This document shows positions 2,824-17,379 of a stretch of DNA of 17,467 bases, one piece after another. Position numbers and translations under genes: made by a program. Source of the DNA: a virus. Taxonomy: Duplodnaviria; Heunggongvirae; Uroviricota; Caudoviricetes. The notes under the pieces were generated by a model. The model was not told the DNA's origin. It saw only the letters and a program-made list of their open reading frames with translations, and made no database searches. The stretch is taken from the IMG/VR virus record IMGVR_UViG_2585427741_000008. The stretch is one strand, 5' to 3'. Each line of letters opens with the position of its first letter. The stretch's first letter is position 1.

Positions 2824-3510
2824 TTAGAAGTTCAGATTTTTCAGTGCATTCAGTGCAAAGCCCACATCCTCAGCGTCGCGCAGGGACAGTGCGCCATAGC
2901 CCCCGGCCATGAATGCTTTGGCCTGGGTACGGGAGAGTCCGACATCACGCAGGACTCTTTCGATTTTTTTCTGTTCGGGGATTTCCCCGCGGGCCAGCGC
3001 GTTCTTGACGTCGCTGATCCGCGCCTCGTCGTTAGACGGAAACGTCACCAGACTGACTTCCCAGAGGTCGATTTCTTTCAACAGAAAGGCTTCTTTGCTC
3101 CGGTCGTATTCCCAGTCTTTCAGGACGTACCCAATAGAAAGGCCGGTTAACGAACCGGCCTTCATGTGTGCATGTGCGCGTTTTGCGAGGGGATCATCAT
3201 CAATAAGCAACCGTCCCCTGACGTAAAGTCCGACATCGTCTTCCTTCATTTCAGTGTAAACACCGATGGGTTCATCCATGCGGTGCTGCCAGAGCAGCGC
3301 AGGTAACGCTTTTCTGTCACTCCACGCCCGCAGGGAAGCAGCAAATGCCCCGGACATCACCACATCATCGTGGCTGTCCTTTACACCAAAGACGGAGCCA
3401 TACCCTTCAAACTCACCGGAGTCACTGACAGATTTCAGACTCAGCGGTACATCAAGACGTTGTTTCGTCTGCATTGGCGTTATCCTTCTGCTTACCGGCT
3501 TTACTGCCAT
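2824..3510 (-). CDS. Prohead maturation protease, HK97 family (peptidase S78-like)
   Basis: 228-aa ORF between portal and capsid. N-terminal region FEGYGSVFGVKDSHDDVVMSGAF is typical of HK97-type prohead proteases. The 5' end overlaps the portal ORF, so the true start may be the internal Met (MQTKQ...). Confidence 0.8.
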   Translation of the reverse strand: MAVKPVSRRITPMQTKQRLDVPLSLKSVSDSGEFEGYGSVFGVKDSHDDVVMSGAFAASLRAWSDRKALPALLWQHRMDEPIGVYTEMKEDDVGLYVRGRLLIDDDPLAKRAHAHMKAGSLTGLSIGYVLKDWEYDRSKEAFLLKEIDLWEVSLVTFPSNDEARISDVKNALARGEIPEQKKIERVLRDVGLSRTQAKAFMAGGYGALSLRDAEDVGFALNALKNLNF

Positions 3511-4693
3511 CGGAGGGTTTCGTGGTCATGTTCATCGGTGTGAGATAGACATCCCCACCGGGACGCGGATTCATATCTTCCAGGTCGCGGCAGTCATTGG
3601 GAGAGTAAATTCCCCAGTTAATCCCGGTGGCGTAGGCTTCAAAACGGGACTTCATATCCCCGCGCAGTAACGCCCCGGCGTTAAATTTGGCGTAATAAAC
3701 GCCCTGCTTACTTTTTCGTACCAGTCCGGTGTTGATCCGCTGCTCAATGCGGGTCAGATACGGCACCAGTGAATAGTTGATAAATCCCAGCCCCAGTTCT
3801 TCGATATTGTTGAAGGTGGCACGATCGGTGTTCTGCACCATGTGCAATGGCACACGGAACAGACGACAGATTTCTTCAAGCTGAAACTTGCGGGTTTCCA
3901 GGAACTGGCTGTCCTCGGCGTTCAGCGCCATCGACTTCCAGTCCAGCCCCATCTCAAGGATCATCGGGCGGTGAGCATTGCCAAGCCCGGTGTGACGCTC
4001 CTCAAAATCTTTCTTCAGGCGCTCATAAGCCTGATCTGACAGCGTCTGCTCTGTACGCAACACACCCGACGTCACCGCGCCATTGCTGAACAGTCTGGCC
4101 CCGTGCTCTTCGGTCGCAGCTGCCAGCGATATTGCCTCGCGGGCATAGGCGATGGGATTCAGCCCCACCAGTCCGTCCAGCGTCAGCGTACGCACATGCC
4201 AGATATCCTCCTGGCTCAGTACATCCGTGGAGCCATCCGGGAATGTGACCTGATAGATCGGCTCCCAGCTACTGTTAAGCTTCGGTACCACACAGCCGGG
4301 ATCGACGGGCAGCAGTTCAGCCACTTCGCCAAATGCTTTCACTTTGTAGGCGTAAAAGTTTCCCCGCAGGCACAGACAGGTGACCACCAGCTCCCAGAAC
4401 TCCTGCGGCGTCATATAGCCATTGGGATGCGTGGAGATCAGCTTATGCAGACGTTCGCCAGTGGCTCTCTGCTTCAGGCTGCCGTTCAGGTGATACAGGT
4501 TGCAGGGCAACATCCCGACCGACTCCGCCAGCACCCTGACGCAGGAAAAAACCGCCGTCAGTCGCATGGCCCTCTGGCTGCTGATCTGCTTTCCGGTATA
4601 GGTGTCGTATGACAGCCCGATAGCATCCGCCAGCTCTGCTGGCGTGGTCACCGGTGCGTCACTTTTTCGTTGAAATAATCCCGAAAAGAACAC
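3452..4693 (-). CDS. Portal protein, HK97 family
   Basis: 413-aa ORF immediately downstream of the terminase large subunit and a small membrane ORF. Size and position fit a portal protein. Confidence 0.85.
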   Translation of the reverse strand: MFFSGLFQRKSDAPVTTPAELADAIGLSYDTYTGKQISSQRAMRLTAVFSCVRVLAESVGMLPCNLYHLNGSLKQRATGERLHKLISTHPNGYMTPQEFWELVVTCLCLRGNFYAYKVKAFGEVAELLPVDPGCVVPKLNSSWEPIYQVTFPDGSTDVLSQEDIWHVRTLTLDGLVGLNPIAYAREAISLAAATEEHGARLFSNGAVTSGVLRTEQTLSDQAYERLKKDFEERHTGLGNAHRPMILEMGLDWKSMALNAEDSQFLETRKFQLEEICRLFRVPLHMVQNTDRATFNNIEELGLGFINYSLVPYLTRIEQRINTGLVRKSKQGVYYAKFNAGALLRGDMKSRFEAYATGINWGIYSPNDCRDLEDMNPRPGGDVYLTPMNMTTKPSDGSKAGKQKDNANADETTS

Positions 4694-4886: not shown

Positions 4887-6620
4887 TTAAAGCGAGCGGA
4901 TCCCGTAGGACTCAATGTGATCAGACAGCGTGTCTTCTTTCTCGTACAGCATGGCTCTGCCAACCGCCATAATCAGCGCAACTGCACCGTCAATTTTGTT
5001 TTCCGCCTGCTCTTTGACGGGTTTCACCACATCATCGTTACCCGGCATGTTTTTGCCGACCACGTTGCCGATACACCAGGTCATGATGGGATTGCCGTCA
5101 TGATGAAAGCGTCCCGATTCAATCGCTGCTTCCAGCTCTTTCATCGGATCGGACATATTGGTGAAGTTCTGGAAGATAGTGACGGGATTCAGGTCTTCAT
5201 CAGCAAGGTCATGTGACAGCCCGGTCGCCCCGAAGGGGTCGATGGGTGACTCGCTGACCGGGCTGATTTTGTTCGCCGCTTTGGCCTCTTCGAGGATGTA
5301 GCGATAATCCACCTCTGCACCATCGGTAACGGTCAGGACGCCCATTTCCACCCATTTCTGAAAGCGTTCGGCTGTCCGGCGATCTTCATTTTTCTCGACG
5401 CTGTACACCGTGTCATACGGTACCCAGAAACGCGGGGCCACACTGTAGTAATGCGTTTTACCTTCAATCTCGCGGGTATAAAGTCGCGCCATGCTGTTCA
5501 TATCCAGTTTACGCGCCAGGTCAAAGGCCAGAATGCACGGCTGCCCCTCGAATTGCTCAAGAGTCAGTGATTTATCCTCGCAGCTCTGCCAGCTCACCAG
5601 GTTGAAATACGCCGAACGCGCCGACACCCAGATATTGAGGTGTTTTGTTTTAAAGACGTTTGCCAGACGGGCGTTATTTTTCGCACGCTGTTGCTGACTT
5701 AACAAAAACTCACGGTAAACCGACACCCCGATATTCGGGTTGGCTTTTTCCAGCACCTGTGGGTTGGTCCAGTCGTCACCTTCGTCAACGGTATAGATGA
5801 TCCCGAACAGTTCATCGTTGGGTACCGAACCGTTGAGCATCTCGATAACTTCCCGCCGTTTGTCGTAGCACGGCCCCTCAATGTTGTACCCGGCGGTAGT
5901 GATAGCCCACATCAGTGGCTGACGTCGCGCCCCCATCCCGGTAAGCATCGTGGTGTAAAGCGCATCTGTGGCGTGCTCGTGATATTCATCCACCACCGCA
6001 CAGTGGGGTGATGAACCATCACCGGGGTTACCGATCAGCGGTTCAAAACGCGCACCATCCTCCGGACGGTTCATGTTTGAGGCGTTAACCTCAATCCCGA
6101 ACGCTTCCGTCAGCATGGGTGTGCGTTTACACATCAGTCTTGCCGGACGAAAGACTTCCCATGCCTGTTTCTCCGTCGTGGCACCGGAATACACTTCCGC
6201 GCCGAACTCGTTATCACAGGCAAAACAATACAGGGCGACACCGGCAGAGATTGCCGATTTGCCGTTCTTACGGGGGATTTCGGTATACACCTCACGGAAG
6301 CGGCGCAGCCGGGAGCCTTTATTGACCCAGCCAAATGCGCAGCAGATCACAAAGAGCTGCCACGGCTCCAGCGTGATGGGCATCCGTTTAAATGCCCACT
6401 CACCCTTGGTGTGCGGCAACAGCTGAATAAATTTGGCGGCCCGTTCAGCCAGATCCTTGTCGAAGCGGTAACGAAACGACTTACTTTTTTCCGCCATCAG
6501 GTCATCAAGATGGCGCTGGCAGGCCTGAATCACAAACTGGCAGGCCACAATCTTTCCGCGCACGACATCCCGGGCATACTGATTGGCAGCATTTACGTTG
6601 GGGTAAGATTTCCGGCTCAT
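4887..6620 (-). CDS. Terminase large subunit
   Basis: 577-aa ORF with Walker A-like PRKNGKS and Walker B-like CAVVDEYHE. Follows the small terminase subunit. Confidence 0.9.
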
Positions 6621-6633
6621 GATTCGATGATTT

Positions 6634-7128
6634 TCAGATTGTCAGAAACGGGTTAGTGGCTTTCTTCTTCCCCGCCAGGCCAATCAGACGCTGGCGGCTG
6701 CTGGGGTCGAGTCCGAGCATTGCCCCCGTGCTGCTCATCTCGGACTCCTGTTCTTTTTTGGCGGTCAGCTCCGGATTTTTGACCATGCCACCCATTGCAC
6801 CGGTGATGGTGTTACCCTGTCTGGCAATATTTTTCACGGCACGTCGCCAGAACTCATAGGCCACACACCACCGCTCAAGTACCGCCAGGTCAGTCACGCA
6901 CAGCAGGCCCTGACCGCAGAGTTCTTTGGTTGTCAGTTGCCACATGATCGTGGCGAGAGGGAGATCTTCTTCAGCGAACCACTCCGGTGGCTCAACACCT
7001 TTGATGGGCGTAAAAACAGGTTCATCTTTATTCAGGGCTCGCTTGCCGGGGTTTCCGGCCAGCGCCTTGCGCGCCGTTGGCTTGGGGCGACGCCCGGAAC
7101 GCCCCGCCGTTCCAGCCATATGCGGCAC
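6634..7128 (-). CDS. Terminase small subunit (P27-family-like)
   Basis: 164-aa ORF with a basic N-terminus ([29 protein letters not shown]) typical of P27-family small terminases. Immediately upstream of terL. Confidence 0.8.
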
Positions 7129-7243
7129 TCCAGGTTAAATTTCATTTTTCGCGGGTATAAAAAAACGATGGGGCGGGCAGTCCTGAAGGCGTCAGGTCAC
7201 AGGGATTTGGCCCGCCCTCCCCTCTGGCAGTGGGAACTGGTTC
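7129..7243. other. Candidate cos / packaging-recognition region (HNH-terS intergenic), also carrying a minus-strand terminator-like structure
   Basis: GC-rich inverted repeat GGGCGGGC (7171-7178) / GCCCGCCC (7210-7217) enclosing a nested hairpin CCTGA-AGGCG-TCAGG (7182-7196). On the minus transcript a U-run follows (complement of the A-run at 7160-7166). Location between HNH and terS is where HK97-type phages carry cos. Confidence 0.35.
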
Positions 7244-7615
7244 TTACTTCAGCCGTTCACGGGCCGTCTTCGCCTTATGACACGGCCAGCACAGGCTCTG
7301 CAGATTGCTGTCGACATCAGTGCCGCCATGCGATTTAGGGATGATGTGGTCAACGGTCTTCGCCTCACGCACCACACCAGCACGCAGACATAACTGACAC
7401 AGGCCTTTGTCACGCTTCAGGACACGCGCGCGGATACTGTCCCACTTGGTATCGTAGCCACGCTGGTGGCGGGATTGTCCTGGTTTGTACTGACGCCAGC
7501 CTTCGCCTTTGTGTTGCTCGCAGTAGCCTGACGGGTCAGTGGTTGTCGATCGGCAGCCGCGAACACGGCAGGCTTTAGGTGTTCGTGGTGGCATAAATAT
7601 ATCCTTAGTATTCAA
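7244..7615 (-). CDS. HNH endonuclease (terminase-associated)
   Basis: 123-aa ORF with the HNH motif CQLCLRAGVVREAKTVDHIIPKSHGGTDVDSNLQSLCWPCHKAK. Adjacent to terS and the putative cos. Confidence 0.85.
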   Translation of the reverse strand: MNTKDIFMPPRTPKACRVRGCRSTTTDPSGYCEQHKGEGWRQYKPGQSRHQRGYDTKWDSIRARVLKRDKGLCQLCLRAGVVREAKTVDHIIPKSHGGTDVDSNLQSLCWPCHKAKTARERLK

Positions 7616-7709: not shown

Positions 7710-8567
7710 GTGTTAAATCCTATCAGCTTATTTTCAGTAAAATTAACCTGCTACCACAATGATAGAGAAATTATGGTAGGAACAGGTTTTCTTTATAGCC
7801 ATGAAGATTATAGAGACCCAATCTTAATAACAAACTACCATGTCCTAACCTGTAGAGAACCCAAAAACCCAGCATCCTTAATGAACAATATAGGATCCTC
7901 ACCAAATAAAATAAAATGTCACATTTGGGCTCCGAATGGCTCGTCCTGCCATACATTTTATATCAATATTGATGAACACACGGAATGGTTAGAACATCCC
8001 TTAAGGGCTAATGGGGTGGATATTGTTGGCATTCCCATAATCTTTACTAGCGATGTAGGCTATACAACACAAAACGATATTAACAACACCGACACAATTC
8101 CACTTCACGTTGCATCAGACTTATCAATCGTGGGTTATCCCCTTGGTTTATCTGTAAATGAGCATTTACCAATTTGGAAAAATGGAGTGATTGCCAGTGA
8201 ACCAGACGTTAAAATATCCGGCCTTGACTATTTCTATATTGATGCAACAACCAAGGAAGGCATGTCTGGATCTCCTGTATTTTCTCATGAATATACTACT
8301 CAAATTATAGTTTCACCAGAAGTGCATGCTTTATATCAGCGTCGCCAGCGAGGCGAACTAGATGCTTTGCAATTTATCTCTTCAATACCATCTGAGTCAC
8401 TAAACAACACCATTCAAGTAAAAAAATTCAAATTAATTGGTATTTATTCTGGACGAGTGACAGTAGGAACATCTATGCCAGATATAGGTATAGTTTGGAA
8501 GCTTAGTCTAATTGAGGAAATGCTTTCGTCCAAAAATTTGGTCAAATCAGAATATCCACCTTACTAA
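7710..8567 (+). CDS. Trypsin-like (S1/Trypsin_2-type) serine protease with an ~85-aa C-terminal extension of unknown function; AT-rich cargo gene
   Basis: 285-aa ORF with a GTG start at 7710 preceded by AGGAGG (7700-7705). Putative triad His44 (GTGFLYS...ILITNYHVL, codon 7839-7841), Asp104 (NGVDIVGI) and Ser186 (GMSGSPVF, codon 8265-8267). About 33% GC in a sampled 60-nt stretch versus about 47% in a sampled flank. Opposite strand to all flanking phage genes. Confidence 0.7.
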   Translation: MLNPISLFSVKLTCYHNDREIMVGTGFLYSHEDYRDPILITNYHVLTCREPKNPASLMNNIGSSPNKIKCHIWAPNGSSCHTFYINIDEHTEWLEHPLRANGVDIVGIPIIFTSDVGYTTQNDINNTDTIPLHVASDLSIVGYPLGLSVNEHLPIWKNGVIASEPDVKISGLDYFYIDATTKEGMSGSPVFSHEYTTQIIVSPEVHALYQRRQRGELDALQFISSIPSESLNNTIQVKKFKLIGIYSGRVTVGTSMPDIGIVWKLSLIEEMLSSKNLVKSEYPPY

Positions 8568-10077: not shown

Positions 10078-10099
10078 AAACCCGCTCGACGGCGGGTTT
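10078..10099 (-). terminator. Intrinsic-terminator-like hairpin in the late leader upstream of the holin (tR-prime-like candidate)
   Basis: 8-bp stem AAACCCGC / GCGGGTTT with a 6-nt loop. On the minus transcript it is followed by UUUUGUCGUUUCU (complement of 10064-10077). Located about 150 nt upstream of the holin start. Confidence 0.4.
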
Positions 10100-10204: not shown

Positions 10205-11995
10205 ATGAGCACAGAATTAAAACTAAAGAAAATTATGGCATCGTCTAAAATTGAGCCATTTATTAGACATATTCGTTTTCCTTTTTTTAAAAACCTTGCA
10301 GAGGGTAGCAAGATTGATTTTGAGTATCCAATTACAGCATTAGTTGGTCAAAACGGAACCAATAAAAGTTCTGTTTTAAGAGCCCTATTCGGTTCTCCAA
10401 ACAACTATTCTCTGGGTAGCTTATGGTTTTCTACAGATGTAGATGAGATTAAAGATGGTGGTCGTTCTAGATTTATTTATGGATATTATGACAAAGCTAC
10501 TGATTCAATTGTTGAAGTAATTAAAACTCGAATCTCTAAAGAAAATGATCCTGATTACTGGGAACCATCCAGACCATTAAAATCCGACAACATGGCTCCA
10601 ATGCCTAGTACAAAAATCTCAACCAATCAACTAAGGACTAGGTGGAAAGCTATTGACAAAAATGTAATATATTTAGATTTCAGAGCAACTATCAGTGCAT
10701 TTGATAAGTTCTTTTATCACTCTGATTTTCATACATACCCTAAGAAAGATTATCTTAGAAAACGCAGTCAGATGCTAAAAGACATTATAGATAACGATCT
10801 TAAAAAATATCAACCTCATAAAGGAAAAAAAGACAAGCTATTTGTTAACACTTTATTAGAAAAAAGTAAGGTAGAGGCAATCAGCAAGATTTTAGGTCGC
10901 AAATACACAAGCATCCGCCTTATTGAACATAGCTTATTCACTAATGACAAAGCTCCCACAATTATTCTTCAATCAGAAAACTTAAAATATTCTGAAGCTT
11001 TCGCAGGCAGTGGGGAATTTGCTGTATCTATATTAGTGCATAAACTAATGGATAGCCCTGATGCATCTTTAATTCTGCTAGATGAACCTGAAGTATCACT
11101 TCACCCTTCTGCTCAATGTCAATTGATGGAATTTTTATCAGAACAAGCACTTAAAAAGAAACATCAAATTGTCATATCCACACATTCATCAACAATAGTA
11201 AAAGACTTGCCTAAAAATGCCATAAAATTATTCTGTCTGAATGATAAAATAGGAAAGGTTGATGTTCTTCAAAATGTCAGCCCAGAAGAATCTTTCTTTA
11301 TTCTTGGTGAACGCATTGATAAAAGAACCGTTATTGTAGAAGATCGGTTAGCGAAGAGGTTTGTAGAAAAGGCGCTTAAAGCGGGTGGTGAAGCATTATT
11401 AAACTCCTTCGAAGTAAAACATGTTCCTGGAGGAGCGGGAAGTATTCTTCAAACTTTGGCTGTGCCTTTATGTGTTGCCAATGTTAAAAACGTTATTTTC
11501 TTATTAGATGGTGACCAATCGAGAACTGATGATTATCCAACTTCTGATTCCATACCAGAAAATCAAAACACAAACCTTCAAAACATCATAAAAGAAATAA
11601 CCAATCAAGATATAAAATTTAGTTGTGATGGTTCTAATGGCTCATCAAATAACAATCAAAAATACAAAATGCAAAGAAATTTTATCGATTTCATCCACGA
11701 TAAAATTGCTTTTCTTCCTGTTTATACTCCTGAAGCATTTCTTATTGAGAATGTTCATGGTGATTATAAAGAATATAAAGATCAAATCCCCAAAAACATT
11801 CAAGATGCTAAAGAAATCACCAAAGAACTTTGTAAGTTAGACACAGGGTTGGAAAACGTTACCAGTGACGATATCTTTGAAACACAAATCAGAATTCTTA
11901 ATAAAATACCAAATAATCATGAAGTGTTAACAAAAACTCGAGAGTTGCTGCAAATCTTTTTAGATAATGATACTATCAGACCAAGAGTGAGGTAG
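10205..11995 (+). CDS. ABC-type (AAA_15/AAA_21-like) ATPase with C-terminal TOPRIM-like putative nuclease domain (OLD/PARIS-like architecture)
   Basis: 596-aa ORF. P-loop-like ITALVGQNGTNKSSVL (aa 43-58, nt 10346-10369), Walker B/D-loop ASLILLDEPEVSLHPSAQ (D293 E294, nt 11081-11086), and in the C-terminal half an acidic pair VIVEDR (E379) plus a DxD motif FLLDGDQ (D435-G-D437, nt 11507-11515), as expected for a TOPRIM fold. AT-rich; stop is 3 nt before the methyltransferase start. Confidence 0.6.
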   Translation: MSTELKLKKIMASSKIEPFIRHIRFPFFKNLAEGSKIDFEYPITALVGQNGTNKSSVLRALFGSPNNYSLGSLWFSTDVDEIKDGGRSRFIYGYYDKATDSIVEVIKTRISKENDPDYWEPSRPLKSDNMAPMPSTKISTNQLRTRWKAIDKNVIYLDFRATISAFDKFFYHSDFHTYPKKDYLRKRSQMLKDIIDNDLKKYQPHKGKKDKLFVNTLLEKSKVEAISKILGRKYTSIRLIEHSLFTNDKAPTIILQSENLKYSEAFAGSGEFAVSILVHKLMDSPDASLILLDEPEVSLHPSAQCQLMEFLSEQALKKKHQIVISTHSSTIVKDLPKNAIKLFCLNDKIGKVDVLQNVSPEESFFILGERIDKRTVIVEDRLAKRFVEKALKAGGEALLNSFEVKHVPGGAGSILQTLAVPLCVANVKNVIFLLDGDQSRTDDYPTSDSIPENQNTNLQNIIKEITNQDIKFSCDGSNGSSNNNQKYKMQRNFIDFIHDKIAFLPVYTPEAFLIENVHGDYKEYKDQIPKNIQDAKEITKELCKLDTGLENVTSDDIFETQIRILNKIPNNHEVLTKTRELLQIFLDNDTIRPRVR

Positions 11996-11998
11996 ATA

Positions 11999-13039
11999 AT
12001 GGCTAAAAAGATACACGTTTACGATTTCTTTTCCGGCTGCGGCGGAACCAGTGTAGGCCTAAAAGCGGTGGGAATGGAAATTATTTTCGGTTTAGATATT
12101 GATCTAGACTCCGCTAACACCTTTAAAATGAATAATCCATTTGCACATTTTATCAATGGTGATATCAAAGATACACACGTTGAGGAAATTAAGCATCTGG
12201 TTTGTGCGTCAACACAAAGCAAAGCTCTAACCCTATTTTGTGGTTGTGCTCCATGTCAACCATTCTCGAAACAAAATAAAATACGGAACGAGGATGATCC
12301 GAGAAAAGATCTGCTTACTGAGTTTGCACGGTTTGTCTCTTATTATACGCCAGACTTTGTACTGGTAGAGAATGTACCAGGAATCCAAAATGTCGATATT
12401 AACAATGGAAATTTCCAGAAATTTCTTGAGGTTTTAGCACATCATAACTACAACGTTGATTTTGGTGTGATTCCTGCGTTGTGGTTCGGGGTTCCTCAAA
12501 CACGTGAACGTTTTGTTTTACTGGCGTCAAAACACACGAATATTAAGCTTCCATCACAAACTCATGATGGATTAAAAACTCCGTATGCAACTGTCAGAGA
12601 CTGGATCGGCGGATTACCTCCTATTGCTGCCGGTGAAACTCATAAAGATGTTATGGATCATACAGCAGCCAAACTATCTGATCTAAATATTAAACGTATT
12701 AAAGCGACTCCTGAAGGAAAAGGTAGAGAATCTTGGCCTGAAGAACTTATACTAAAATGCCATAAAAAATATAAAGGGCATACTGATGTTTATGGACGGC
12801 TTTCTTGGGACAAACCAGCAAGTGGATTAACAACTAGATGTATAAGCTATTCGAATGGACGTTTCGGACATCCAGAGCAAGATAGGGCTATTTCTGTTAG
12901 AGAGGCTGCGTTATTACAGACTTTCCCATTAGACTATTCCTTCACAGGCTCTTTAGTCTCGAAAGCCAAACAGATAGGGAATGCAGTCCCTCCCAAGATG
13001 GCTGAAGCTCTTGGAAGGGCTATCATCGCATCACTTTAA
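11999..13039 (+). CDS. DNA (cytosine-5)-methyltransferase
   Basis: 346-aa ORF with the canonical m5C-MTase motif order: I FSGCGG (nt 12029-12046), IV GCAPCQPFS (PCQ at 12251-12259), VI LVENVPGI (ENV at 12367-12375), VIII QTRERFVL (12497-12511) and X IGNAVPP near the C-terminus, with a variable region between VIII and X. Confidence 0.9.
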   Translation: MAKKIHVYDFFSGCGGTSVGLKAVGMEIIFGLDIDLDSANTFKMNNPFAHFINGDIKDTHVEEIKHLVCASTQSKALTLFCGCAPCQPFSKQNKIRNEDDPRKDLLTEFARFVSYYTPDFVLVENVPGIQNVDINNGNFQKFLEVLAHHNYNVDFGVIPALWFGVPQTRERFVLLASKHTNIKLPSQTHDGLKTPYATVRDWIGGLPPIAAGETHKDVMDHTAAKLSDLNIKRIKATPEGKGRESWPEELILKCHKKYKGHTDVYGRLSWDKPASGLTTRCISYSNGRFGHPEQDRAISVREAALLQTFPLDYSFTGSLVSKAKQIGNAVPPKMAEALGRAIIASL

Positions 13040-13041
13040 AA

Positions 13042-13063
13042 GCGGAGCCCTAGAGGGCTTCGC
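13042..13063. terminator. Hairpin at the convergent junction of the methyltransferase and Q genes
   Basis: 9-bp stem GCGGAGCCC / GGGCTTCGC (one G-U wobble) with loop TAGA. It overlaps the Q stop codon. The minus transcript has UUUUAAAG after the stem; the plus strand has no U-tract. Confidence 0.4.
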
Positions 13064-13406
13064 CTAACAATAATAGAATACCTGATATAAACCCTATAGC
13101 TCCCTGAAGCTCTTTTCTAATTGCTCCATCAGAGCATTTTCTTTTCTTAGCAATGGTGCGTAATGAGATACCAATCACAAAATGAGCAATGATCAGCTCA
13201 TATTCTTCTGGTTTATACTTCCGCAGGCGGGCGACACAGCCATCAATCATGATGCCTTCATCATCATCGCACTGAATCCGGGACTTTCTGCCATGAGGTA
13301 AAAGCCCCTTGAAGCCAGCGGCTACCGGTTGCCAATCCACACCACTGTTCTCTGCCGCAGCCCACGCTCCCCAACGGTCTAATACTTCATACATATCACA
13401 CATCAA
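13050..13406 (-). CDS. Phage antitermination protein Q (small Q family, not lambda Q)
   Basis: 118-aa ORF. Pattern LDRWGAWAA...W...AAGFKGL...RIQCDDDEGIMIDGCVARL...SDG...L resembles the small enterobacterial Q-antiterminator family as I recall it. Sits last in the early/regulatory block, before the late genes. Confidence 0.65.
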   Translation of the reverse strand: MMCDMYEVLDRWGAWAAAENSGVDWQPVAAGFKGLLPHGRKSRIQCDDDEGIMIDGCVARLRKYKPEEYELIIAHFVIGISLRTIAKKRKCSDGAIRKELQGAIGFISGILLLLGEAL

Positions 13407-15980: not shown

Positions 15981-16441
15981 TCATCACTCGATACAGCGCG
16001 CTTGCTGCTTTTCCGTAAACACTGCTCACGACGCGCCAGAAAATTGTTTCGTTCTGGCTGGGAATGGCTTTCACGGAATGCCGCCATCCACACCGTTGCA
16101 GCACGACGGTATAAGCCCCTGGACTCCAGTTCTTCAGCCTGGCGGGTCAGGCACAAAATCTCCCGCGGGTCGTTAGTGCCGACATAGAAATTGCGCACAG
16201 GTCTGGTTTCACGAACTGGTTGCGGTTCCGCCTCCTGCGCTCTCTCAGTCAGGCGCGGGAAATGTCTGCGTGTATCCCCTTCACAACGGTGAGCCACACG
16301 ACCACTCTGACGTAACTTGCTTGCTGACTGCAGAACGCGCTGCCGTGAGTAACCAGCAAAAGCATCCGCAATGTCTCCGGAAGTACACCCCGGATGGGCT
16401 TCAATGTATTTCTGAACTTCATTCAAAAGACTCATGATCAC
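15947..16441 (-). CDS. Hypothetical phage regulatory protein (possible PerC-like C-terminal region)
   Basis: 164-aa ORF with an N-terminal HTH-like segment and a C-terminal LESRGLYRRAATVWMAAF resembling the PerC-family signature. Weak call from memory. Confidence 0.4.
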   Translation of the reverse strand: MIMSLLNEVQKYIEAHPGCTSGDIADAFAGYSRQRVLQSASKLRQSGRVAHRCEGDTRRHFPRLTERAQEAEPQPVRETRPVRNFYVGTNDPREILCLTRQAEELESRGLYRRAATVWMAAFRESHSQPERNNFLARREQCLRKSSKRAVSSDEWYLSGNYVGA

Positions 16442-17379
16442 CCCCTGAATCCTGCCGGGATCTGGCTGTAGTCCACGTTGTCGTAACTGGCTTTGAAGTA
16501 CGGGTCTTCGCGTTTTTCGGTGTACGTGCTGACGGACGGCGATAAGCGCAGGGAAAGCTCATCCCATTTTTCCCGCAGCTTCGACGGGCTGAGCACGTTA
16601 CGGCACCAGAACGGATCGCGGCTGACGCGGCTGTACATCTCGCAGATTTGTTTGTGAGTACGACCATCCTGCACACACATCAGGCGAATTTCGTTTGCCC
16701 AGGCTGTCCAGTTCGGTTCTTTGGGACGAACCACCTCGCCGTCACATTCGGCAGCCTGCTCGTACAGGGCGATGATTTTTTTCCAGAACCACTGTGCGCA
16801 GGTCAAATCATCCTGCGTTCCCCACTGGCGCTTTTTAGGGCTGAATACAACCGCATCAGGATGGCGAGTTAAAAAATCCTGTTCATCCGTCTGCGTGTCC
16901 GGTTGCGAAGCGTCCGGACGAGAAGGTTTTTTATCTGACGGATCATGTTTTGATTTTACTGACGGATCCCCGCCAGATTCTGACGGGTGAAAACCCGCTT
17001 TTTTGCCAGATTTCGACGCATCAAATTTTGACGGGTCAGATTTTGATGCGTCAGATTTTGACGGGTCAGAATCTGACAGTTGAGAAAATGCCGCTGCCTG
17101 AAGCTTCGCAACGTTAAGCTGATAAACATTCGACGCATTGCGGTTACCCTGGCGACGCGCCTTACGCGTTAACCAGCCTTCTGCTTCCAGCCGTGCGATA
17201 GCCGTTCTGACGGTGCTCATCCCCGCGCCAATCTGGCGGGCAATGGTTTCAATTGATGGCCAGCACACACCTTCGTCATTACTGAAATCAGCCAGGCGGG
17301 CCATAATTGCCACGCTGGATAACTTCATGCCTGACGCAGCGCAACCATCCCATACATAGCCGGTTAATTTAGTGCTCAT
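16438..17379 (-). CDS. Replication initiation protein (O-like: N-terminal wHTH, repeat-encoded linker, C-terminal domain)
   Basis: 313-aa ORF with AGAGGT 6 nt upstream of the ATG. N-terminal HTH (LSSVAIMARLADFSNDEGVCWPSIETIARQIGAGMSTVRTAIARLEAEGWL), a low-complexity SDPSK/SDASK pentapeptide-repeat linker, and a C-terminal domain. Lies at the head of the early region upstream of RusA. Confidence 0.55.
   Translation of the reverse strand: MSTKLTGYVWDGCAASGMKLSSVAIMARLADFSNDEGVCWPSIETIARQIGAGMSTVRTAIARLEAEGWLTRKARRQGNRNASNVYQLNVAKLQAAAFSQLSDSDPSKSDASKSDPSKFDASKSGKKAGFHPSESGGDPSVKSKHDPSDKKPSRPDASQPDTQTDEQDFLTRHPDAVVFSPKKRQWGTQDDLTCAQWFWKKIIALYEQAAECDGEVVRPKEPNWTAWANEIRLMCVQDGRTHKQICEMYSRVSRDPFWCRNVLSPSKLREKWDELSLRLSPSVSTYTEKREDPYFKASYDNVDYSQIPAGFRG
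17007..17081. repeat. Five tandem 15-bp direct repeats (iteron-like), with degenerate copies upstream to about 16934
   Basis: Read directly: CAGATTTCGACGCAT, CAAATTTTGACGGGT, CAGATTTTGATGCGT, CAGATTTTGACGGGT, CAGAATCTGACAGTT (17007-17081). Related CTGACGGATC/CTGACGGGTG copies at about 16934-16990. They lie inside the replication gene and encode the pentapeptide repeats. Confidence 0.7.

Follow-up and report, generated by a model that had tools for sequence, protein, structure and literature searches.

The 115-bp gap between the HNH gene (7615..7244) and terS (7128..6634), that is, interval 7129-7243 of the 17,467-nt stretch of viral DNA analysed here (hereafter the window), is, as judged from sequence homology, very probably the cos site of a prophage that resembles SfV and SfI and is of the HK97 type. 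A sequence-only reading had placed in this interval a cohesive-end site and/or the terminator of the late transcript. The first part of that proposal stands, given the homology of the interval to the experimentally mapped cos sites of SfI and HK97 and the exact SfI 10-mer at 7170-7179; the second part does not, since the interval lies mid-operon and its stems lack covariation. The cos identity is already known here, this being the ordinary site of a common prophage type. What may constitute a new point is that the upstream, G-box half of the site is shared among at least five types of downstream box.

Along the minus strand, the site opens with a G-box, GAGGGGAGGGCGGG followed by CCAAATC (7204..7224; consensus GGGGAGGGGCGGG-TCAAATC), which represents the upstream half of cos and holds the right arm of the outer inverted repeat (GCCCGCCC on the plus strand). 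It continues with a spacer of 21 nt (7183..7203), fixed in length and variable in sequence, which contains the inner hairpin CCTGA/TCAGG; with a GAC triplet (7180..7182) directly 5' of the cohesive end; and with the cohesive end itself, 5'-TGCCCGCCCC-3' (7170..7179; GGGGCGGGCA on the plus strand), assigned by its match to the SfI run-off sequence. Finally, a downstream block T7-ATA-CCCGCG-A5-TGAAATTTAA (7135..7165), defined by its conservation, extends from +5 to +35 from the cut. Nicks are predicted at 7169/7170 on the minus strand and at 7179/7180 on the plus strand, leaving 10-nt 3' overhangs. In this regard, the SfI run-off reads left a gap, not an overlap, and therefore indicate recessed 5' ends and hence 3' overhangs; it is on this ground, together with the 3' overhangs of HK97, that we infer a 3' polarity for the cohesive ends of the SfV/SfI family.

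Identity of the interval as an SfV/SfI-type cos site

A megablast search with 6900-7500 matched phages SfV, SfII, SfI, SfIV, 118970_sal3 and ST64B together with several Escherichia and Klebsiella phages, the nucleotide identity over the interval being 93-99% to SfV, SfII and SfIV, about 90% to SfI and about 84% to ST64B. When the record ends are joined, the linear SfV and SfIV records break at window 7186/7187, within the interval; that of SfI ends at window 7170, i.e. at the 10-mer. Run-off sequencing of both ends of SfI virion DNA has revealed a 10-nt gap with respect to the prophage, 5'-TGCCCGCCCC-3', which the authors identified as cos (PMC3636060), the mapping consisting of run-off Sanger reads only. 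The window contains a single exact copy of this 10-mer, at 7179..7170 of the minus strand, where it makes up most of the left arm of the outer repeat. In the same paper, the SfI cos region is described as differing by one base from SfV cos (PMC3636060). The SfII cos has been annotated at bp 59-125, beside terS (PMC3772137), which corresponds to window positions from about 7186 to 7120, and SfIV has been reported to carry the same cos (PMC3851460).

The gene neighbourhood is in agreement with these matches. In SfV, SfI, SfII and SfIV terS is annotated as the terminase small subunit, and in SfI, SfII and SfIV the flanking of cos by HNH and terS is annotated as well. Taken together with ST64B and 118970_sal3, these phages have the same flanking genes as the window and a 10-nt cohesive end, TGCCCGCCCC, that is identical to its own; with respect to SfI, SfV, SfII and SfIV, the window cos shows point differences only, whereas the prophage accessory genes outside cos differ. 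Of 5426 complete E. coli genomes, 1091 carry the 171-bp cos region, which is flanked by an HNH gene and a P27-family terS in all the E. coli matches listed. The cos assignment locates the packaging origin of an enterobacterial prophage type that is very common. The window prophage itself could be defective.

The genes on either side of the interval encode packaging proteins. The HNH gene (7244..7615, minus strand) encodes a putative accessory nuclease of the HK97 gp74 type (PF01844, 8.9e-17), which matches gp74 by BLASTP with an E value of 5e-9 and 40% identity over 42 aa, and whose best solved relative is 5h0m (1.8e-12), deposited as 'HNH endonuclease'. On the opposite side lie terS (6634..7128, minus strand), encoding a P27/Terminase_4 small terminase (PF05119, 2.6e-21), and terL (4887..6620, minus strand), encoding an HK97-type large terminase with ATPase and nuclease (PF03354, PF20441), the sole solved-structure relative of which is HK97 TerL (6z6d, 6.7e-26). 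Genes for the portal, S78 protease and capsid follow terL on the same strand. The order HNH - cos - terS - terL is the HK97-type arrangement, and the expectation that the HNH gene would be found next to cos and the small terminase gene was thus borne out.

Several other features of the window lie outside cos. Within 10205-13039, on the plus strand, there are genes for an OLD-like AAA_15/AAA_21 ATPase (PADLOC HEC-04, 1.9e-36; ATPase-Toprim_I-B, 1e-24) and for a C5 cytosine DNA methyltransferase (PF00145, 1e-59; PADLOC MTase_II, 4e-91), both inserted on the opposite strand between the Q gene (13406..13050) and the holin gene; this segment has the appearance of a defence or accessory cassette carried by the prophage at the Q-lysis hotspot. 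A trypsin-like peptidase gene (7710-8567, plus strand; PF13365, 3.8e-9; PADLOC candidate PDC-S45, 5e-21) is situated between Rz1 and HNH, on the opposite strand, directly upstream of the packaging module. Overlapping inverted repeats on GTCAGATTTTGAC at 17015-17077, within the gene for an HTH replication protein (17379..16438), are probably origin iterons.

Retrieval by TerS yielded 31 loci from Escherichia/Shigella, Edwardsiella, Serratia, Photorhabdus, Xenorhabdus, Morganella and Gilliamella, which align gaplessly from one common anchor and display, in phage orientation, the G-box GGGGAGGGGCGGG, (T/A)CAAATC, a 21-nt spacer, GAC or TAC, and the 10-nt overhang. The overhang is followed in these loci by 4-6 variable nt and then by W2T5ATACCCGCGAAAAATGAAATTTAA. 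A G-rich run plus (T/A)CAAATC is present in all of 46 aligned cos sites, HK97 included, with AATC invariant and the G-box always 21 nt before GAC; in the GAC column of the 46 sequences the A and the C are invariant and the first position is G or T.

Conservation is also pronounced downstream of the cut. Among 49 unique SfV-type sequences, most columns between about +7 and +35 reach at least 88% conservation, and the CCGCGAAAAAT core does not vary at all (100%). The T-run at the start of the block has two forms of about equal frequency among the unique sequences, T7 in one half and AAT5 or TAT5 in the other, and the portion of the block from +15 to +29 reads CCCGCGAAAAATGAA in the window (7155..7141). 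In five loci (L030, L031, L035, L036 and L038) terS starts 50-70 nt further, and the block remains beside cos, so that it belongs to cos and not to the ribosome-binding region of terS. By analogy with cosB, the block at 7135..7165, which occupies the position of the TerS-binding site of HK97, is a probable recognition site of the small terminase. This assignment rests on position, composition and conservation, because window TerS has no detectable homology to HK97 gp1 at the sequence level (BLASTP E 5.7; hhalign probability 0.1%); in addition, a solved-structure search with window TerS gave no match, and HK97 gp1 has no Terminase_4 match. To read ATCAAATCTCT as an IHF site (consensus WATCAANNNNTTR) is speculation: compared by eye, it departs from the consensus by 1-3 mismatches, depending on the relative, and the usual A/T-rich flank is missing.

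Two interpretations of the G-box were considered and discarded. As an inverted copy of the TerS block, it offers a partial match (GCGGGT plus an A-rich stretch) with a symmetry centre about 10 bp from the cut, and this match is absent in HK97. As a mimic of a tRNA T-arm, the G-box plus TCAAATC forms stems that pair inconsistently, and Rfam returned no match.

Inverted repeats and the terminator question

The repeats and the U-run are as claimed in the sequence-only reading. GGGCGGGC (7171-7178) pairs with GCCCGCCC (7210-7217) in an all-G:C outer stem of 8/8 pairs, whose arms stand 31 nt apart, and the inner hairpin pairs CCTGA (7182-7186) with TCAGG (7192-7196) in 5/5 positions around a 5-nt loop. 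CAUCG and then U7 (7165..7159) come directly 3' of the outer stem on the minus strand. Both stems, their separation and the 5-nt gap before U7 were re-read from the sequence.

Taken alone, the inverted repeats exceed chance only weakly. With a seed of at least 8 nt and arms within 50 nt, the whole 17.5-kb window contains 70 inverted repeats, and about 0.46 are expected per 115 bp. The RNA fold of the whole interval reaches z = -2.1, with 6 of 200 shuffles equally stable, and that of the hairpin plus U-run z = -1.4 (17/200). The 10-mer TGCCCGCCCC with one mismatch would have about 1.2 chance occurrences per window. Rfam showed nothing relevant, either for the whole window at the gathering threshold or for 7000-7400 at E values up to 10. 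On the comparison of sequences, the conservation of the ordered cos boxes is far beyond chance; these recur at fixed spacing in Escherichia, Shigella, Salmonella, Edwardsiella, Serratia, Photorhabdus, Gilliamella, Morganella and phage HK97.

Pairing was assessed in a gapless alignment of 46 diverse cos regions, comprising pattern-selected viral contigs, TerS-selected loci and HK97. Paired cells amounted to 74% in the outer stem and 55% in the inner stem. Overall pairing was 67.1%, compared with 66.2% when partners were column-shuffled, and 111 of 500 shuffles were as high; covariation in both stems was no better than in column shuffles of these 46 sequences. In this comparison the conserved features of cos are sequence boxes, not pairings. 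The outer inverted repeat results from a partial complementarity between the conserved G-rich box and the C-rich cohesive end, and the inner hairpin, located in the variable spacer, is incidental. With respect to the common E. coli/Shigella form of the site (e.g. L063), the window cos has a G-run that is one G shorter and CCAAATC in place of TCAAATC, and 7183-7224 includes two spacer substitutions (GACGTC to GACGCC and TTCCGG to TTCAGG). It is because of these G-run, T-to-C and spacer changes that both stems are perfect in the window; in the commoner cos variant the inner stem pairs at 4/5 positions and the outer stem lies in another register. A third stem, CAGRG/CYCTG around the G-box (in Photorhabdus, GGGTAGGG with CCCTACCC), which on visual inspection suggested covariation, was also tried and rejected, the complementary 5-mer occurring in 7 of 46 sequences against 6.7 expected from shuffling.

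These data bear on the idea that the inverted repeat acts as a hairpin or cruciform, made of the G-box and the cohesive-end arm, that is recognised by the HNH/terminase nuclease. The two segments are to some degree complementary in most relatives, as reflected in the 74% of paired cells, and Gilliamella pairs TAGGGGGG with CCCCCCTA. Register 0 pairs 67% of cells against at most 53% in slid registers, an advantage that is expected because the structure was derived from the window sequence itself. However, column shuffles pair equally well, HK97 is complementary at only about 7 of 10 positions and cutting is confined to one arm of the repeat, and we consider recognition of such a structure to be quite unlikely. 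Our preferred reading remains that of a cos site defined by its sequence boxes.

The nested hairpin and the U-run had also been proposed to form an intrinsic terminator of the late transcript downstream of HNH, a view that we consider highly improbable. The element does resemble intrinsic terminators in its G:C-rich stem and in the U-run (U7) that comes after it on the minus transcript, and in one MFE register, in which GAGGGG pairs with CCCC-AUC (-25.9 kcal/mol), the stem ends 1 nt before the U-run. It departs from them in being a branched hairpin of 58 nt with a 31-nt loop and a z of only -1.4, in the five non-U bases (CAUCG) between the perfect stem and the U-run, in its position in the middle of an operon and in a pairing that is not conserved, neither stem being kept by compensatory change. 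In about half of the relatives the T-run itself amounts to no more than AAT5 or TAT5; it is lacking in HK97 and forms part of a DNA block that hardly varies between genera. In addition, the consensus terminator scan did not call this element.

The genetic context argues against an end of transcription at this point as well. The HNH gene takes the last place on the linear virion map alone; in the prophage, as in replicating DNA, it is followed 115 bp on, on the same strand, by terS, terL and the genes for portal, protease and capsid. The HNH-terS gap was scanned for a promoter-like site, and none was found. The Q antiterminator gene (13406..13050) lies upstream, and late transcription modified by Q would continue past a hairpin at this place. 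The promoter/terminator-like pair that precedes the holin gene likewise points to a lambda-style late operon transcribed by read-through.

The members of this pair are located just upstream of the holin gene: a promoter-like TTGACC-17-GATACT (10351..10323, minus strand), which is contained in the predicted 5' end of the ATPase ORF on the opposite strand, and a terminator-like hairpin of compact form, AAACCCGCCGTCGAGCGGGTTT, with a T-rich tail (10099..10078, minus strand). Together, they look like a Q-dependent late promoter and its terminator, resembling lambda pR'/tR'.

In a milder form, cos might double as a weak conditional terminator, acting on polymerase that lacks the Q modification (e.g. 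in stray lysogen transcription) and being read through lytically. The geometry of hairpin and U7 would suit such a function, and T-runs are found at +3 to +11 in other cos types too (CCTTTTTTCACA and GATTTTTACGCG). On the other hand, the canonical short loop is absent, the pairing is not conserved beyond composition, and the conserved protein-site block accounts for the T-run, which HK97 lacks. We assign to weak termination of unmodified polymerase a low but appreciable probability, because the alternative register puts the base of the stem 1 nt from U7. Reading the interval as a cos site corrects a tempting misinterpretation of cos hairpins as terminators.

The two halves of cos across phages

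Viral contigs were scanned with the pattern TCAAATC-N21-GAC-N-GCC-NN-C, which gave at least 81 matches, those in the 80 loci listed. Of these matches, 62 carry an upstream G-run, a feature not contained in the pattern. In these pattern-derived loci TCAAATC, the spacing and GAC are fixed by construction, and the independent evidence for them comes from the TerS-derived loci and HK97. In the loci examined for genes, the matched site is located between an HNH gene and terS. One of the loci, L083 (IMGVR_UViG_2711768073_000020), contains two complete cos sites (3499-3575 and 6370-6446), 2.9 kb apart and in the same orientation; its gene order is HNH-cos-terS, three opposite-strand ORFs and a second copy resembling HNH-cos-terS-terL, and the double cos could result from duplication, from a nested element or from misassembly.

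The sequence downstream of the overhang falls into at least five box types, namely the SfV type, the HK97 type, CCTTTTTTCACACCGCCGCAGGTTAGAAAAC, GATTTTTACGCG... and one more. The proteins encoded on the two sides of cos differ in how they relate to these types. The identity of TerS to its window counterpart is 75-88% in the SfV type and 23-28% in type C, and HK97 gives no match; that of TerL is 82-88%, about 36% and 27%, respectively. The HNH protein is 54-68% identical in the SfV type, 65-78% in type C and about 40% over 48 aa in HK97. The single readable HNH of type D is 62% identical to that of the window, and the TerS proteins of type C and of the single type D and E loci are 23-31% identical to window TerS. 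In these sequences, the left half of cos accompanies the HNH side and the right half accompanies TerS, an association that could be partly due to physical linkage.

Loci L101 and L121 are viral contigs whose upstream cos halves are nearly identical (AATGTCAAATAGGCCGGGGGGGGATCAAATCCCTACGGGCGACCGCC..GACCGCCGCCT), whereas their downstream boxes and TerS types differ, which places the mosaic joint at the cohesive end itself. Phages thus appear to swap cos halves by recombination at the cohesive end. Against linkage as the full explanation, however, HK97 has a distant HNH protein whose gene lies about 270 bp from the G-box, and it still retains the G-box with its spacing, suggesting a functional constraint.

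Our tentative view, held with less than even confidence, is that the upstream half (G-run, TCAAATC, 21-bp spacer, GAC and overhang) may be a functional subsite common to HK97 and at least five box types, serving either as a recognition or positioning site for the HNH/TerL nuclease pair or as a cosQ-like termination signal, with TerS recognition confined downstream. We found no description of the upstream cos half as a functional subsite in the accessible literature. The conserved left half, and the right half that tracks with TerS (SfV type as opposed to type C and HK97), offer mutational targets for the study of HNH/TerL recognition, and the two halves bear on how satellites or mosaics might exchange packaging specificity.

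Comparison with HK97 and lambda

The HK97 record ends read ...GGGGGGGGGATCAAATC-(21 nt)-GAC-CGCCGCCAAA on one side of the junction and GTTTGAATTTAACGCTAACCCGATTTTTTTAG on the other, and thereby align gaplessly with the window, with the G-run, TCAAATC, the 21 nt, GAC and a 10-nt overhang at the homologous position. In both phages a block consisting of a C:G pair plus an A/T tract occurs within about 30 bp downstream of the overhang. They differ in the overhang itself (CGCCGCCAAA in HK97, TGCCCGCCCC in the window), in the downstream block (CTAACCCGATTTTTT as opposed to CCCGCGAAAAATGAA, with CCCG about 4 bp nearer the cut in the window) and in the distance from the HNH gene to the G-box, which is about 270 bp in HK97 and about 20 bp in the window.

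Cleavage of HK97 DNA leaves 10-nt 3' overhangs and is stimulated at cos by the HNH protein gp74 (PMC9410871, PMC11331095). The minimal site of HK97 TerS spans +15 to +29 and is recognised via a C:G pair at +21 and the adjacent A/T tract (PMC11331095); the numbering of the two papers agrees with the record, in which T16, the C:G pair at 21 and the A/T tract at 23-31 are found.

By analogy with HK97, packaging in the window prophage would begin with the binding of the small terminase to the downstream block on concatemeric DNA. Once bound, it would position the large terminase, whose nuclease, aided by the HNH protein, would introduce staggered nicks flanking the 10-mer and thus generate the 10-nt 3' overhangs. 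Packaging would then start from the terS side, and cutting of the next cos would complete the genome.

The lambda late transcript runs across cos, and Q-modified polymerase reads through it. What the window site has in common with lambda cos (cosQ - cosN - cosB) is a layout in three parts, in which an upstream element and a nicking site are followed by a downstream small-terminase site beside the terminase genes. Any role of the G-box is one that we infer, and a cosQ-like role is only an analogy. In contrast to the window site, lambda has 12-nt 5' overhangs, no HNH partner, and R sites plus an IHF site in cosB, and its cos bears no sequence similarity to that of the window.
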